DNA of 64,000 nucleotides from Psilocybe cubensis (lineage: Eukaryota): contig CM039005.1 in the NCBI GenBank assembly GCA_017499595.2, positions 2,976,001 through 3,040,000 on the forward strand. Direction: 5' to 3'. Below are positions 18,838-32,614 of this stretch, piece by piece (the stretch's first letter is position 1; every line of letters starts with the position of its first letter). The notes under the pieces are model-generated. The model saw nothing but the letters and a program-made list of their open reading frames with translations. It did no database searches and was not told the DNA's origin. The position numbers and the translations under genes are program-made.

Positions 18838-20137
18838 TCAGACCGATGACTTATCGTGCCAACGTCCAGATTGCATCTGGGAGATATCGGACCCCTCCAG
18901 CACAAAGCCCTCCGGTTTAGATTCGTTTAGTGTGTTGGAATGATTTGATGCATCAACAGTCGAAAGTGGTTTGATAAACTTCATACTGACGGACTCCGCT
19001 TCTTTGGTGTTCCCTGATAGAAGCTGTTTAGTGGTTTTATCAGTCCAGGCCTTTCCGTATGCAACTCTGTACGTGATAAGAAGTGGAGCAATGATCTGGG
19101 GTATTTTGATAGATATCAGTGTTAGCAATGGGAGTGATACAGTTTAAGCGACTTACCTGAACCTCTCCTAACATCTGAATAAACGTATTTTGAATGGGAT
19201 GGTTAAGAGCGAAGGGGACTAAGAAACACAGTGAGAAGACAGAGTAGATTGCCGCAGATTCCACAAGCATTGCAGCAATGCTGGTATAATGCGACCCATG
19301 CCTTCCTCCCAACACCTTCACCATCCTTCTGCGGAAAACAAGCAGTCTCGCGCAGATAGCTATAGTCATGGTCATATTAAGAGCCAGTGACAACCAGAAG
19401 TATGGCGCAGTAAAGTTGATGCTCCCAGCTACCCAAGGTGAAGTGGCAGAAATCTGCGTTAGCCACAGTATTCCAGTGGCTATAACGATAAGGCATCAAA
19501 AAAGGACAAAATTGTGATGGGCGCTCATACGCACTAACGGATCCGAGGTATGCAATGGCTGGAATTCCCATGACCAGATAGGGGGAGAACCTACACCCTC
19601 TGTAGATGACCATACATCGATACACCTGTGGATACAGCCATGAAAATTGATTTCAGAACGACCTCTGCATTGAATACTCACAACCATCCCATCCGCAAAC
19701 CAATTCGCCAAAACATACGCCACATTTGCTACTTCATCTACCGGAATGGAAAATTCAACTTCTTCAAAGGTGGCTGCAACGAAGCGGATCCGGTATCCTT
19801 TTCATCAGACTAAGCGAGTTTTAAAAATGCTGTACTGCGCACCTGGGCCTCCAGGGATGTTCCGATAGTCAATGAAGCTCAACTGCGTCATTTTCGAGCC
19901 TGAACCAATAATCAAAGTACCCAGGATGAATATAAGTGATATGTAGATTATCAGCGGAAGTTTGGACGCGAGATTCCTTTTGTTTGTCGTCCGTATGAGC
20001 TGTACGAAGGACATCATGAACAATGTGAAGACAATCCCGTAGGCGACTGCCGAAAGAATGATGCCAGCCAACCATGTCCGTTCATTCAAGATCGTGGCCG
20101 CATCCTCCTGAGGCCTCCAACTAGGATCCAACGACAT
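18838..20137 (-). CDS. Multi-pass (probably 7TM) membrane protein of an expanded agaricomycete GPCR-like family
   Basis: About 7 hydrophobic segments across the exons. Motifs NWFADGMV|MYRCMVIY, AAMLVESAAIYSV and QIIAPLLITYRVAYGKAW, followed by a polar C-terminal tail. Confidence 0.75.
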
Positions 20138-20500
20138 CGAGCAGAGGGTTTATGAAGGAAAGAATGACAGGAAGGATTGTAGCCGACTGCGCCGCTCACA
20201 AACCGAACCTCGGTATATGAGGGTTTACATAGGCTTTGCTGTCGGTTCCTCGCTGGTTGCCTTGCTGGTTTGACGGGTGTCGGACAAAATCCAGTGACCA
20301 GGGAGTTTTGGGCTAATAATGGAAAAAAGGTCTAAATTTAACGGAAAGGAACGCACAGACACCGGTACATGTGAATCATGGGAGAAAGATTCTGAACGAA
20401 TGTATTTCGGCTGTCATTCCATCCTCCATCACCCGACATTGTACCGTGGCCTAAAATATACTATTTCCCAGATCACATGCTAGCCTGTTACGCAGTAGTG

Positions 20501-21153
20501 CTATCGGTCTTTCACCTAATGTTGCCCATTAAAACTGACAAATTTATTAGTAGGGAATAGTACCTTTGAATGAGCCTTGAAGTTTTGTTCCGCTTCCGAA
20601 TAGACTTGGGTCCAATCGAAGCAAAGAGTATTATAAGTCCTTGAAGCAGTCGCTGCCGAGTTCTTCGCATTCTCCAGACCGGTATTCAAATTGCACAGAA
20701 GACTTTGTCGCAGATAATTCATGCAATGTCGAGTGAGGGATGATATGGGTTGTGAGGCATCATTGAGGTATTCTTGACGAATGACGTCTAGACATTTCAG
20801 CTGGTGGAATAAGGTAACGGTATACTTCTCCTTCCCTATATGAACTAGATGTCCGCCAGAAGGTAGCAGACTTCGATACTCCTCTTCACTATCAGAAGAA
20901 TTGATTCGATAATGTGTAGTCGACCCGATCAGCATCGCTACGGGCTCTCCTCGTTGTTTGAGAAGTGAGTGATCTAGAGTTGGATAATGAGCGCAATACA
21001 CCTAGTCTTCCATGGGGAAGCAATACCAGAAGCCGAGGGCCAGGAATTCCAGTACGATGCTGTAAGTATCCGAAAAACGCTCAGGGAGATGGCCATTGGT
21101 ATAAGGATTGTGGTGAGGGCGCTATGCCATGACCATTTCTTCGATACCGCCAT
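20501..21153 (-). CDS. DUF3328/UstYa-like oxidase with degenerate HxxHC motifs
   Basis: N-terminal TM anchor (MAVSKKWSWHSALTTILIPMAISLSVF), then an intron, then VTLFHQLKCLDVIR, LTRHCMNYLRQSLLC and TLCFDWTQVY. Probable last intron gives ...HSK|VKDR*. Confidence 0.85.
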
Positions 21154-21249
21154 CAATGCATAGGGAAGACATCACAAAGCACGCTTCAGACTTAAATATT
21201 AGCGAACAAAAAAGTCACAGGCTCTTGATTCTTTACTCGAAACTCCACC
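21154..21249. promoter_or_regulatory. Very short shared intergenic region between the divergent DUF3328 genes (probable bidirectional promoter or overlapping 5' UTRs)
   Basis: Only 96 bp separate the two start codons. Confidence 0.55.
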
Positions 21250-21891
21250 ATGAAAACTCTGTCAACATTTCTAGCTGGAGTTGTCCTGCTCAACCTATCC
21301 TTAGTAGCTTGGAATTGTTCGAACATACTTATACGACAAAAGAAAGGTATAACAATATGACCTCCTTCAAATTATCAAAATTCATGAAGCGTCAATTTAG
21401 ATTCTTACTCGTATATCGGAGAAGACTTTCCCTTCTTCCACCCATCCTTAACAAGGGAATATACCTCCTTGACGTATCAGGAGAGCATTCGGTTCGGTTA
21501 CAACTCAGAAGACAAAACCGAAGCAGCGATATGGCGTTCTCTGACGAATCAGCCAGGAGGATTTGGAAGGGCTCACCTTGGGGATCAAAGAAGATCTTTT
21601 TTGTTCACGTTCTACCACCAGTTTCATTGCATTTCTCAGTTTCACAGAGCTCTACAAAATAGAGCAGACGAAATAGCGACGTCGGAACACGTTGATCATT
21701 GTCTTCAGTATCTGCGCCAAACGCTGCTCTGCTCGGCTACGAACACTTTAGAACGCGGCGACTTCATGAAGCGCAATTTTGATACGGATCGAGTTGGCCC
21801 CGAATCTGGATGCGTAAACTGGGAAACTATATTTGGAGAGATAGATAGGAGTTGGCAGGACTTTACACGATGGAGAGAATTATGGAACTGA
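21250..21891 (+). CDS. DUF3328/UstYa-like oxidase with two canonical HxxHC motifs; 2 exons
   Basis: MKTLSTFLAGVVLLNLSLVAW (TM or signal), then |DSYSYIGEDFP...FYHQFHCI...EHVDHCLQYLRQTLLC...CVNWETIF. Confidence 0.92.
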
Positions 21892-30500: not shown

Positions 30501-30957
30501 GTCTGTTAAAATACATCTAGCTGCGGAGATATTTAAAATTGATTGAACTATGTGGAATAGACACAGTTGGAGGTTTGTTCGGGTACCGGGATGCGCCCGG
30601 AGGCGTTGTCTGTCTGAAATTTCATTGCAGCGTAATTACGCTTGCCCTGTAAGCATGACGCCAGATTCCATTGTCTCGGGAATGCTTCCTTTGTAATATT
30701 AGAGAAAGTACAGTGTATTACATAGAGAAGAGGTTCGTTTTTATACAAAGGTGTTAAATACCCACGATATTTTTGCCAAAAACGAGGTTTCGGAAATAGC
30801 ATTATAATCCATCATTGAACGTACTGTCACCGAAACAGATACGAGTGCTTATTCCTGGAATTGATACAGACTACCTTAAGCAGGAGCAGGAATGGCAATA
30901 TATAATCCTGGCTATGAGTTCGGTCCAGAGACTCCTCGAAGACGTTTTGTGACTACA

Positions 30958-31315
30958 ATGTTGAAGCGCATCATTACCTTTACCCTGTTTGTGTGCTGGC
31001 TTGCGCCAGCCTTAATTGGTAAATTTACTTCCTAAATTTCTGGATTTAACGAGTGCTGAAGCAGTGTGATAGCTAGCCCAGTAGTTGTCACTCCAGGAGG
31101 TAACTAATATCAAACAATTATCGACATTTTTCCATTAACTTGCTACGTCCAAAGGTCCTGGTTTGTCCAAACGCGAAACTGGTGCGAGAATTTTATCTCG
31201 AGAAATATGAGTGCCTTTTAATGTAGTCATTCTTGTAGATTGTCCGTTTCCACGCGGTGTTGAAGGCATACCTCAAAGTGACGAATGCTCGCCTGAGGAT
31301 CCTACTGAGGGTTAG
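30958..31315 (+). CDS. Small secreted prepropeptide B (63 aa), candidate RiPP or peptide precursor; exons 30958-31018, 31073-31099, 31155-31181, 31239-31315
   Basis: MLKRIITFTLFVCWLAPALIASPVVVTPGGPGLSKR-ETDCPFPRGVEGIPQSDECSPEDPTEG*. First three exons are 61, 27 and 27 nt, identical in size to peptide A. Confidence 0.85.
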
Positions 31316-31849
31316 TGAATATTCAGAGTAAGCTGTTCATTCCCCCGTCGGAGTTACCACGCTGAACAAATGCATAGGTATTGCTCGAAAGCGTGTTAAT
31401 ATGAATGTGAGGCTGAGGTGCAGACGGACTGTTTATTTATCCTTCGACCAATATAATTGAAGATGCCGTGGGACTACAATTCTCGAAAAGTGTTACTGAG
31501 TATTATTTTTTGTCCTGCGATTGTCCCAGGCCCAGACTTATGAATGGGAAGATTTGGAGCCTTACTTCACCTCTGAAGAATATTACACATGATCAGTAAA
31601 AAATGGCAGTGCTGGTCGTCTATGCTGAAGAATGCTATAAGTGGTATTGAGCTCATGAATTTGGTGAAAGCAAATTACAGTTCCAGAGTTGTCGACGTAT
31701 ATATTGTCAGGAAAGTCCTAGAGTTGATAAAGATGAGGTCCGTTCAAGTCATTATTACTACTATCACAAAACTAGACTAAGATATATCTCGACTTGTCCT
31801 TAGCCAGCTCGACACAAAGTCCTGAAAATTACGTATCAAGAGATCAAAG

Positions 31850-32614
31850 CTAGACAGCAGTAAAGACGAAGCGCTGGCTGATATCTCCGTTAGCACCGAG
31901 AATCTTAACCCATGCCTGTAGGCGAAGTAAATCGTCGGAGTATGTAATGAGTCAAAGAATTACCCACCCCTGGTTCTGCCGTCCAAACCTCATCCGCAAC
32001 TGGATTCTTGATCTACAAATTTGTCAGAGACTAGCTTTAGTCAGGAAACGTTTCACTTACGACATATTTTCCATTTCCTGCGCATTGAATTGCAAAGGCA
32101 ACGGGGGATGCGCCCCAGGAAGTATAGGGCTGAGGAGCTCCCTAAGAGAACAGTGAGATCCAATTAAGGTAGACAAGCAAACATATTACTACGTACCCCG
32201 TACTGAAGCGTAAGTACCGGCGCGTTTTCTCCGACATTGGTAATATAGTAGGCGGATTGAGGCGCGGAGGTGATAGACCACTATATCACAAAACATTCAA
32301 TGGGGAAACAAGTCGCATCAATTTATACGACACTTACAACGCCCAATTGTCCAGTTGGTTCCTCCTCAAGAGTGTTTATCGCTGGAGGAGCGTGAGAATG
32401 ATGATAAGGACGCAATTTCCACCCAGTTCCGGCCGATGCAATTGTATATTGACCAGGCGTCAGGACAGCGCACTGAGCAGTAATGAGCGAGCTGAGGACA
32501 CGTTTACAGATAATACAACATAGTTACCCCTTGACGACTTTCCAAAGGTGATGCCCCTGTGATGAGGGATTGCATAGCCACAAGCGCAGAGAGGTAGAAA
32601 GTGTTAAAGCGCAT
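31850..32614 (-). CDS. Secreted beta-trefoil-like protein, copy 2; 6 exons
   Basis: MRFNTFYLSALVAMQSLITGASPLESRQG|CAVLTPGQYTIASAG...ISQRFVFTAV*. Same introns as copy 1. Confidence 0.8.

Follow-up and report, generated by a model that had tools for sequence, protein, structure and literature searches.

A DUF3328 (UstYa) gene pair beside secreted-peptide genes in Psilocybe cubensis: a fungal-RiPP-like locus with candidate precursors

Introduction

In a 64,000-nucleotide stretch of the Psilocybe cubensis genome (assembly GCA_017499595.2, contig CM039005.1, positions 2,976,001 to 3,040,000), two genes encoding DUF3328 (UstYa) proteins share an interval of about 14 kb (18838-32614) with genes encoding short, putatively secreted peptides. 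The question raised by this locus is whether the products of the first act on those of the second. "The window" hereafter means the whole 64-kb stretch, and all positions refer to it. A first-pass annotation had proposed an undescribed cluster for peptide biosynthesis or signalling, in which the oxidases would modify single-core precursors of peptides that are made by ribosomes and modified after translation (RiPPs). Mushroom regions carrying UstYa/DUF3328 genes are labelled "fungal-RiPP-like", and the accessible part of the genome-mining literature gives no substrate or product for any of them.

The answer that we favour, with a probability of about one half, is a locus made of two layers: (i) a conserved UstYa pair, possibly together with a neighbouring gene (PIP2) encoding a hydrolase of the S33 proline iminopeptidase (PIP) type, and (ii) a young array of secreted-protein genes located beside it. 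Peptides of this array that share a DCPFPR core motif are the only candidate oxidase substrates in the window. The locus qualifies as a "fungal-RiPP-like" region that offers candidate precursors; it does not amount to a demonstrated RiPP cluster.

Results

A head-to-head pair of DUF3328 genes with unequal copper motifs

The window is eukaryotic DNA with short GT..AG introns; gene models were built by hand and then checked against homologues retrieved by protein searches (Table 1). The first-pass annotation had called two DUF3328/UstYa oxidases, and the profile search with PF11807 agrees on two genes: the UstYa1 and UstYa2 exons score 45.4 and 45.9 bits (gathering cut-off 25), and the homologues P0082, P0002, P0009 and P0003 are also above the cut-off. 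The oxidase motif is complete in UstYa2 only. The genes are arranged head to head, separated by a short spacer presumed to be a bidirectional promoter. The upstream start codon of UstYa1 is backed by its Crassisporium homologue P0009, and the UstYa2 model is colinear with P0002 and P0003. Two exon translations are identical (100%) to public P. cubensis proteins, that of UstYa1 to KAH9478939 (JR316_0009402) and that of PIP2 to KAH9478942 (P0084, named "L-amino acid amidase"). UstYa2 has no 100% match among public proteins and, furthermore, the accession numbers of UstYa1 and PIP2 leave a gap of two numbers only, yet three genes are modelled there. Therefore, UstYa2 is probably missing from the public annotation of P. 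cubensis.

The two proteins differ in their motifs. UstYa2 carries HQFHC and HVDHC, i.e. the double canonical HxxHC copper motif; UstYa1 carries HQLKC followed by TRHC, having lost one His per motif and kept two of the four. Motif states were read from an alignment of 16 sequences. The five members of the UstYa2 clade all have both HxxHC motifs. The UstYa1 clade is represented by 11 members, drawn from Psilocybe, Crassisporium, Pholiota, Mycena, Pleurotus, Suillus, Armillaria and Fibroporia, each of which shows HQxKC plus a lone HC. Another two Cys are conserved in every sequence. The alignment thus points to a His-depleted UstYa1-type clade that is widespread across Agaricomycetes.

According to the available text of a 2025 study, DUF3328 proteins are anchored in the membrane and form homodimers linked by disulfides, the motif lying where the two monomers meet (PMC12435403). 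In CctR, the enzyme described there, the four motif His of each monomer bind two coppers, and activity is lost in His or Cys mutants (PMC12435403). Judged by this standard, UstYa1 would be unable to form the canonical copper site. Since its clade has HxxKC...xxxHC, UstYa1 is probably a copper-poor or non-catalytic partner. The modelled complex of the UstYa1 and UstYa2 lumenal domains has an interface score (ipSAE) of 0.92; 51 of 78 solved complexes and two of 108 mismatched pairs score that high, and the best of three controls scored 0.00. At least 93% of contacts recur between runs, the predicted local distance difference test (pLDDT) of the partners is at least 81 and the interface spans both motif regions. 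This prediction supports binding between UstYa1 and UstYa2.

Conservation of the pair and of a PIP2-type gene

Adjacency in other genomes was inferred from GenBank accession numbers, which run in genome order and serve here as a proxy. On this basis, P. cubensis has a second locus with a UstYa pair side by side (KAH9484723 and KAH9484724), and Crassisporium funariophilum shows the same arrangement (KAF8155879 and KAF8155880). Moreover, both members are found on one 10,179-nt Logan contig. The first-pass annotation had asked whether DUF3328 and PIP genes co-occur in other Agaricales: UstYa1-type and PIP2-type proteins are encoded on the same contig in all three species that returned both, i.e. 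P. cubensis (KAH9478939 and KAH9478942), C. funariophilum and Pholiota molesta, which are related species. The PIP2-type gene (KAF8155877 in Crassisporium, KAF8193013 in Pholiota) stands two to three accession numbers from the UstYa gene or genes in these last two; in P. molesta, the UstYa1-type protein is KAF8193011, two numbers away. These PIP2-type proteins are 65-67% identical to PIP2 and 40-42% identical to PIP1, the other intact hydrolase of the locus. No PIP was returned from the contig carrying the second P. cubensis pair, which is uninformative as the same search also missed PIP1 of the window.

Two S33 proline-iminopeptidase-like peptidases had been announced, and the S33 profile check finds PIP1 and PIP2 intact and the third copy, PIP3, reduced to a remnant. 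P0084 (PIP2) scores 235.4 bits against TIGR01250 (cut-off 167.65) and stays under two equivalog cut-offs, so its substrate is left unassigned. PIP1 was compared with TIGR01250 exon by exon only and is colinear with it. Exons of the PIP genes also match, in colinear order, the solved proline iminopeptidases 3wmr, 7a6g, 3nwo and 1mtz. PIP1 and PIP2 are 43-47% identical; the Ser motif of the nucleophile elbow is GHSWGG in the first and GQSWGG in the second, and both have NSTH near the C-terminus. In PIP3, P0084 matches by tblastn over residues 223-291 (44% identity), with stops inside. Neither the PIP1 nor the PIP2 model has a signal peptide; both enzymes look cytosolic and therefore would not meet a peptide of the secretory lumen.

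Among the homologues returned, a PIP1-type sequence was seen only as one half of P0083 (PPQ94608, 507 aa) from Psilocybe cyanescens, i.e. only in Psilocybe. The public model of P0083 fuses PIP1-type and PIP2-type hydrolases; it probably corresponds to two adjacent genes merged by annotation.

Tandem duplication and the DCPFPR peptide genes

From 17 to 36 kb, the genes are ordered as follows: HsbA-like (+), 7TM-like (seven-transmembrane-like, -), UstYa1 (-), UstYa2 (+), PIP1 (+), But2-like (-), PIP2 (+), pep1 (+), tre1 (-), PIP3 remnant, pep2 (+), tre2 (-), HsbA-like (-) and pep3 (-), followed by genes for a Gfo/Idh/MocA oxidoreductase, an O-methyltransferase and a major facilitator superfamily (MFS) transporter. 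Eight of the nine direct-repeat families of the window are spaced by 4048-4142 bp and reflect one tandem duplication of 4.05 kb (26171-28978 versus 30313-33036), with blocks 77-90% identical. The duplicated block carries the last part of PIP2, one peptide gene and one tre gene. Therefore, the two peptides, the two presumed trefoil proteins and the extra PIP result from a single event and are not independent co-occurrences. The duplicated area also encloses a 1.2-kb stretch (28980-30170) that resembles nothing else in the window and matches no Pfam family. In addition, all nine inverted-repeat pairs join the two HsbA-like arms (70-93% complementarity), which flank the entire 15-kb region and hint at an earlier rearrangement or a segment prone to inversion.

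Two KR-containing secreted prepropeptides had been proposed from the sequence. Both can be modelled (pep1 and pep2), and a third copy, pep3, is added; it lies outside 18838-32614, just past the right HsbA-like arm and near the oxidoreductase and O-methyltransferase genes. All three share the same three-exon plan: a signal-peptide exon ending in phase 1, an exon of 27-30 nt and a last exon that holds the core and extends to the stop. Their introns have the same phase and lengths of 134-136 and 55-58 nt. A long middle exon for pep1 was dropped: the short one fits the intron lengths of pep2 and pep3, and the long reading of pep2 has an in-frame TAA.

In the three models, the first 20 or so residues are hydrophobic (putative signal peptide). 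Each has a single, Cys-containing core without Tyr, as the first-pass annotation had described for two of them; Phe occurs in these cores. There are two Cys in pep1 and pep2 and four in pep3. In pep1 and pep2, KR stands two residues before the DCPFPRG core and two Cys are 15 positions apart with F-P-R-G between them; pep3 has IR instead of KR. A Kex2 site after the core is present in none of the three, and the 64-kb window holds no tandem-repeat (KEP-type) precursor. The DCPFPR motif has three matches in the window for 0.05 expected, and none of 100 shuffles reached three. In the DNA alignment of the duplicates, the only changes between pep1 and pep2 across DCPFPRG.EG are synonymous. Outside the motif, exons are no more conserved than introns (overall identities 64-70% versus 62-68%), and the Nei-Gojobori estimates between pep1 and pep2, based on few sites, are 0.37 for nonsynonymous (dN) and 1.17 for synonymous (dS) divergence. 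Taken from these comparisons, pep1-3 appear to be real, constrained and quickly evolving genes. Metagenome scans have no bearing on absence in fungi: that with back-translated DCPFPRG[IV]EG gave no match, and that with UstYa2 gave 93 pattern matches, none confirmed.

The proposal of the first-pass annotation was that these peptides are single-core RiPP precursors of UstYa1/UstYa2. After removal of the signal peptide and Kex2 cleavage behind KR, the oxidase would hydroxylate or cross-link the Pro-, Phe- and Cys-rich core in the lumen of the endoplasmic reticulum (ER) or Golgi, a PIP-type hydrolase would trim the product, and the But2-like and 7TM-like proteins would have accessory or export roles. 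Several features argue for it: the shared hydrophobic N-termini and intron phases, the KR of two of the three peptides, the retention of an over-represented core through synonymous changes and the position of pep1, which starts 528 bp downstream of PIP2, itself two to three genes from the oxidase pair. The modifying and transport genes that follow pep3 (O-methyltransferase, Gfo/Idh/MocA oxidoreductase and MFS) would also suit such a pathway. So would the lack of a repeat precursor, and of non-ribosomal peptide synthetase (NRPS), polyketide synthase or terpene synthase domains: as stated in the first-pass annotation, none was found in the scanned open reading frame translations of the window, where short exons may be overlooked. 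Furthermore, single-core precursors have been suggested, in the available text, for DUF3328 clusters of lichens in which repeats are missing (PMC12048977).

Other features point away from it, namely the cores devoid of Tyr, of repetition and of a C-terminal Kex2 site, the IR of pep3, two PIPs which, as cytosolic enzymes, would miss a lumenal peptide, and the local duplication and fast divergence of peptide genes whose exons show no more conservation than the introns. No 7- or 8-mer is shared above the shuffled level across seven promoter groups of the locus, so that there is no promoter-word sign of co-regulation, in line with separate layers. In Agrocybe pediades, the tre homologue (74,751-nt contig) and the PIP2-type protein (459,209-nt contig) are on distinct contigs, although the assemblies may differ. 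Proximity itself is weak evidence because UstYa genes are numerous (16 in Pleurotus ostreatus according to the accessible text of PMC8893723). Precursors of this kind are thus a tentative possibility, clearly less probable than the two-layer reading.

Secreted tre proteins and other neighbours

Of the "two secreted beta-trefoil proteins" announced, two intact, secreted, 165-aa paralogues (tre1 and tre2) stand and the trefoil fold stays unconfirmed. Their dN/dS is 0.18. Eight representative proteins were found with one tre exon at E 1e-3 or better, of which P0119 (KAF9555296, 167 aa, from A. pediades) was kept; it is colinear with both genes. The seven others, of 408-1799 aa, were set aside; for six of them the reported match aligned only part of the query, and P0122 is repetitive. 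P0119 gives only sub-threshold profile matches, to Inhibitor_I66 (16.1 bits, E 0.011, cut-off 27) and RicinB_lectin_2 (14.7 bits, E 0.05, cut-off 25.6), and its nearest Atlas clusters in language-model space all belong to trefoil families: ricin-B lectin (0.94), I66, CCL2-like and clitocypin. Both AlphaFold2 models are poor (pLDDT 59.7 and 37.2). Foldseek found no match at E 0.001 or better, and the best VIA-align hits (Z 5.5) were non-trefoil chains. A sequence search of the PDB gave nothing better than E 1.5.

The peptides and tre proteins may also be viewed as secreted protease inhibitors or defence effectors unrelated to the oxidases. This would concern the secreted-protein array only and is compatible with the two-layer reading. 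Phe-Pro-Arg is a classic substrate and inhibitor motif of thrombin and trypsin-like proteases, and the I66 family includes mushroom serine-protease inhibitors. In pep1 and pep2, the disulfide-closed loop around F-P-R-G would present Pro-Arg as a P2-P1 bait for trypsin-like proteases, and tre would be an I66-like beta-trefoil inhibitor or a ricin-B-like lectin, as hinted at by the profile matches and Atlas neighbours of P0119. The low dN/dS of tre1/tre2 and the tail-to-tail arrangement of pep and tre, duplicated together, are consistent with this. Against it stand the sub-threshold level of all family matches, the poor models, the fold searches that returned no trefoil, and pep3, which has R-R-D after the motif and another Cys pattern. 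Moreover, no inhibitor family of such a peptide type was found, and the core string CPFPR occurs only in unrelated papers among those listed. An inhibitor function is therefore unlikely as a specific assignment.

The 7TM-like gene adjoins UstYa1. It encodes a multi-pass membrane protein, as annotated at first; five hydrophobic segments are strong by hydropathy and two weaker ones are seen by eye, so that the count of seven stands in part only. Its introns are GT..AG, of 45-61 nt. It has no Pfam match, and its nearest Atlas clusters are Basidiomycota hypotheticals (0.96), DUF6534 (0.82) being the only named lead. A signalling cassette, in which the peptides encoded 7-15 kb away would be ligands of this protein and the oxidases would mature the signal, draws on this neighbourhood of secreted peptides and a multi-pass protein. 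The protein has no receptor or G-protein-coupling features and resembles uncharacterised families, which makes such a cassette highly improbable. As for the single-pass But2-like protein, the single-pass gene is upheld and the family name is less certain, since its exon 2 alone scores 21.2 bits (E 4e-4) against PF09792, under the cut-off of 24.2.

Beyond pep3, the oxidoreductase (with a Gal80-like C-terminal domain) and the Methyltransf_2 O-methyltransferase are encoded side by side, and the MFS gene comes after them. Farther to the right, nitrate-assimilation genes are grouped: first a probable nitrate transporter of the MFS type, then a nitrate-reductase-like gene in which Mo-co dimerisation and NAD-binding domains are recognised. 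Near the right end, what appears to be a single gene combines ankyrin repeats with an AAA_2 (ClpB/Skd3-like) ATPase domain after them.

Table 1. Features of the P. cubensis window (positions within the 64-kb stretch)
Feature	Position	Strand	Description
HsbA-like gene, left arm	17182-18390	+	left arm of inverted duplication; inverted-repeat pairs
7TM-like protein	18838-20137	-	multi-pass membrane protein, 360 aa; exons 19843-20137, 19682-19797, 19535-19625, 19157-19479, 18838-19095
UstYa1	20516-21153	-	exons 21027-21153, 20516-20973; PF11807; short DUF3328 protein, N-terminal anchor
UstYa1/UstYa2 spacer	21154-21249	.	96 bp between start codons at 21153 (-) and 21250 (+); presumed bidirectional promoter
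UstYa2	21250-21891	+	exons 21250-21346, 21401-21891; 196 aa; PF11807; short DUF3328 protein
PIP1	22316-23493	+	six exons, about 304 aa; divergent S33 proline-iminopeptidase-family paralogue; exons match TIGR01250
But2-like protein	23666-24657	-	single-pass, 316 aa; exons 24118-24657, 23666-24073
PIP2	25147-26371	+	305 aa, no signal peptide; P0084; TIGR01250
pep1	26899-27247	+	51 aa; exons 26899-26959, 27095-27121, 27180-27247; phase-1 introns of 135 and 58 nt; two Cys
tre1	27802-28565	-	six exons, 165 aa, secreted, beta-rich; colinear with P0119
PIP3 remnant	30220-30417	+	pseudogene, 3' fragment of PIP2 copy with in-frame stops; in duplication block D4
pep2	30958-31315	+	54 aa; exons 30958-31018, 31155-31181, 31239-31315
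tre2	31850-32614	-	intact tre1 paralogue, 165 aa
HsbA-like gene, right arm	33236-34448	-	right arm of inverted duplication; PF12296 E 5.4e-5, 24.1 bits, under cut-off 33.5
pep3	35080-35424	-	exons 35364-35424, 35200-35229, 35080-35144; introns of 134 and 55 nt; DCPFPRR core; four Cys; no dibasic site
Oxidoreductase and O-methyltransferase	35843-39637	-	Gfo/Idh/MocA (Gal80-like C-terminal domain) and Methyltransf_2, side by side
MFS transporter	42000-43674
Nitrate-assimilation genes	45365-51029	+	MFS (probably nitrate) transporter, then nitrate-reductase-like gene
Ankyrin/AAA_2 gene	60724-63233	+	ankyrin-repeat region, then AAA_2 ATPase domain

Discussion

In the two-layer reading, the first layer is the UstYa pair, two short DUF3328 proteins whose genes are transcribed divergently; they would be anchored in the membrane with their catalytic domains turned towards the ER/Golgi lumen. 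UstYa1 and UstYa2 may associate as a heterodimer that is stabilised by disulfides and has a single complete copper site; it would oxidise a peptide substrate in the secretory pathway. The putatively cytosolic S33 hydrolase PIP2 has remained beside the pair in three genera. This layer is probably old and functional. The second layer, which would be young and lineage-specific, would include PIP1, the But2-like gene, the 4-kb duplication with its DCPFPR peptide and tre genes, and pep3. It may consist of fast-evolving small secreted proteins of effector or defence type, located beside the first layer by chance. We take it to be young because of the 77-90% identity of the duplicated blocks, the pseudogenisation of PIP3, the occurrence of PIP1-type sequences in Psilocybe only and the similar identity of peptide exons and introns.

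Several points weigh against this reading. To our knowledge, every characterised DUF3328 enzyme acts on a peptide; since no NRPS was found in the window, a local ribosomal substrate is therefore the natural expectation. The DCPFPR peptides, with their putative signal peptides, would enter the same compartment as the oxidase domains. Furthermore, as the core of pep1 and pep2 has undergone synonymous changes only, the peptides appear constrained and not decaying, and part of PIP2, pep and tre were duplicated as a single block. The first layer itself may be less telling than it appears: because the species are related, the adjacency seen in three of them may be inherited gene order only. Likewise, because the DUF3328 family is known to dimerise, the heterodimer score may reflect only this general tendency; close relatives of a true partner also pass such a complex-model test, and the three controls included no homodimers.

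The most far-reaching form of the alternative would be a first mushroom DUF3328-dependent peptide pathway, in which single-core, Kex2-released, disulfide-looped DCPFPR substrates are oxidised in the secretory pathway by an obligate heterodimer of a canonical and a His-depleted protein, an asymmetric copper enzyme with one complete binuclear site. We consider it doubtful, more so than a precursor role of the peptides as such. If such an obligate heterodimer exists, it would be the normal working form of many unexplained mushroom UstYa genes, given the presence of the clade in Mycena, Pleurotus, Armillaria, Suillus and Fibroporia.

Whichever holds, the locus can be viewed as a small test system that offers a two-gene oxidase unit found in at least three genera, a clear structural prediction (a canonical partner joined to a His-depleted one) and three short candidate peptides that are easily synthesised. 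If the peptides are substrates, DUF3328 peptide chemistry would extend to basidiomycetes and to cores that are neither repeated nor Tyr-based. If they are not, the His-depleted clade and the pairing would still be informative on how this copper-enzyme family is built, and the locus would caution against inferring a biosynthetic cluster from gene proximity where a region is duplicated and evolves quickly.

Comparison with known systems

One close precedent is that of the ustiloxin-type (dikaritin) RiPP clusters of Ascomycota, with UstYa/UstYb and a Kex2-processed repeat precursor. As in these clusters, two different DUF3328 genes stand side by side in P. cubensis, the candidate precursors have a putative signal peptide and, for pep1 and pep2, KR, a peptidase-family gene is near, and methyltransferase and MFS genes are found further out. 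However, the P. cubensis peptides carry an unrepeated core devoid of Tyr and not followed by a Kex2 site, UstYa1 lacks one His per motif, the peptidase is a putatively cytosolic S33 enzyme, and the host is a basidiomycete, where the system is known here from genes alone. In basidiomycetes, the available text of one survey reports 103 of 1680 repeat precursors with a DUF3328 gene within 15 genes (PMC7329392).

CctR, the cyclochlorotine hydroxylase, is a homodimeric binuclear-copper DUF3328 enzyme (PMC12435403, available text). The P. cubensis proteins resemble it by the N-terminal anchor, the lumenal helical domain, the HxxHC(x)nHxxHC arrangement (UstYa2), conserved C-terminal Cys residues and a predicted interface through the motif helices. 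They differ from it in that the modelled dimer joins two paralogues, one of which keeps two of the four motif His. CctR also tailors a non-ribosomal peptide, whereas no NRPS was found in the scanned open reading frames of the P. cubensis window. We found no literature linking DUF3328 with proline iminopeptidases or with heterodimers, and literature on the JR316 locus tags gave nothing relevant.

The secreted array recalls the fungal beta-trefoil defence proteins (I66, ricin-B-like and CCL2-like lectins, clitocypin) through the language-model neighbours and sub-threshold matches of P0119; it differs from them by the signal peptides of tre1 and tre2 and by a trefoil fold that is unconfirmed. Lichen DUF3328 clusters, in the available text of their description, have genes with signal peptides and Kex2 sites near DUF3328 genes and no repeats, and a single core peptide is considered possible by the authors (PMC12048977). 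They belong to Ascomycota, have other accessory genes and, as far as this text goes, no DCPFPR-type peptide is described for them.

Finally, the locus would fall in the antiSMASH class of "fungal-RiPP-like" regions, as known from Pleurotus and Termitomyces, in which DUF3328 is matched without a validated precursor. The accessible parts of mushroom genome-mining studies list many such regions and warn that precursors are missing (PMC11455885, PMC11490876). The word "undescribed" used in the first-pass annotation should thus be qualified, since regions of this class are commonly flagged in mushrooms. Termitomyces regions pair DUF3328 with an AMP-binding enzyme, unlike the P. cubensis locus (PMC11455885, available text), which offers specific small-peptide candidate precursors together with a conserved arrangement of two oxidase genes and a PIP gene. 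What is new here is the pairing of a canonical with a His-depleted DUF3328 protein and the DCPFPR candidate peptides.

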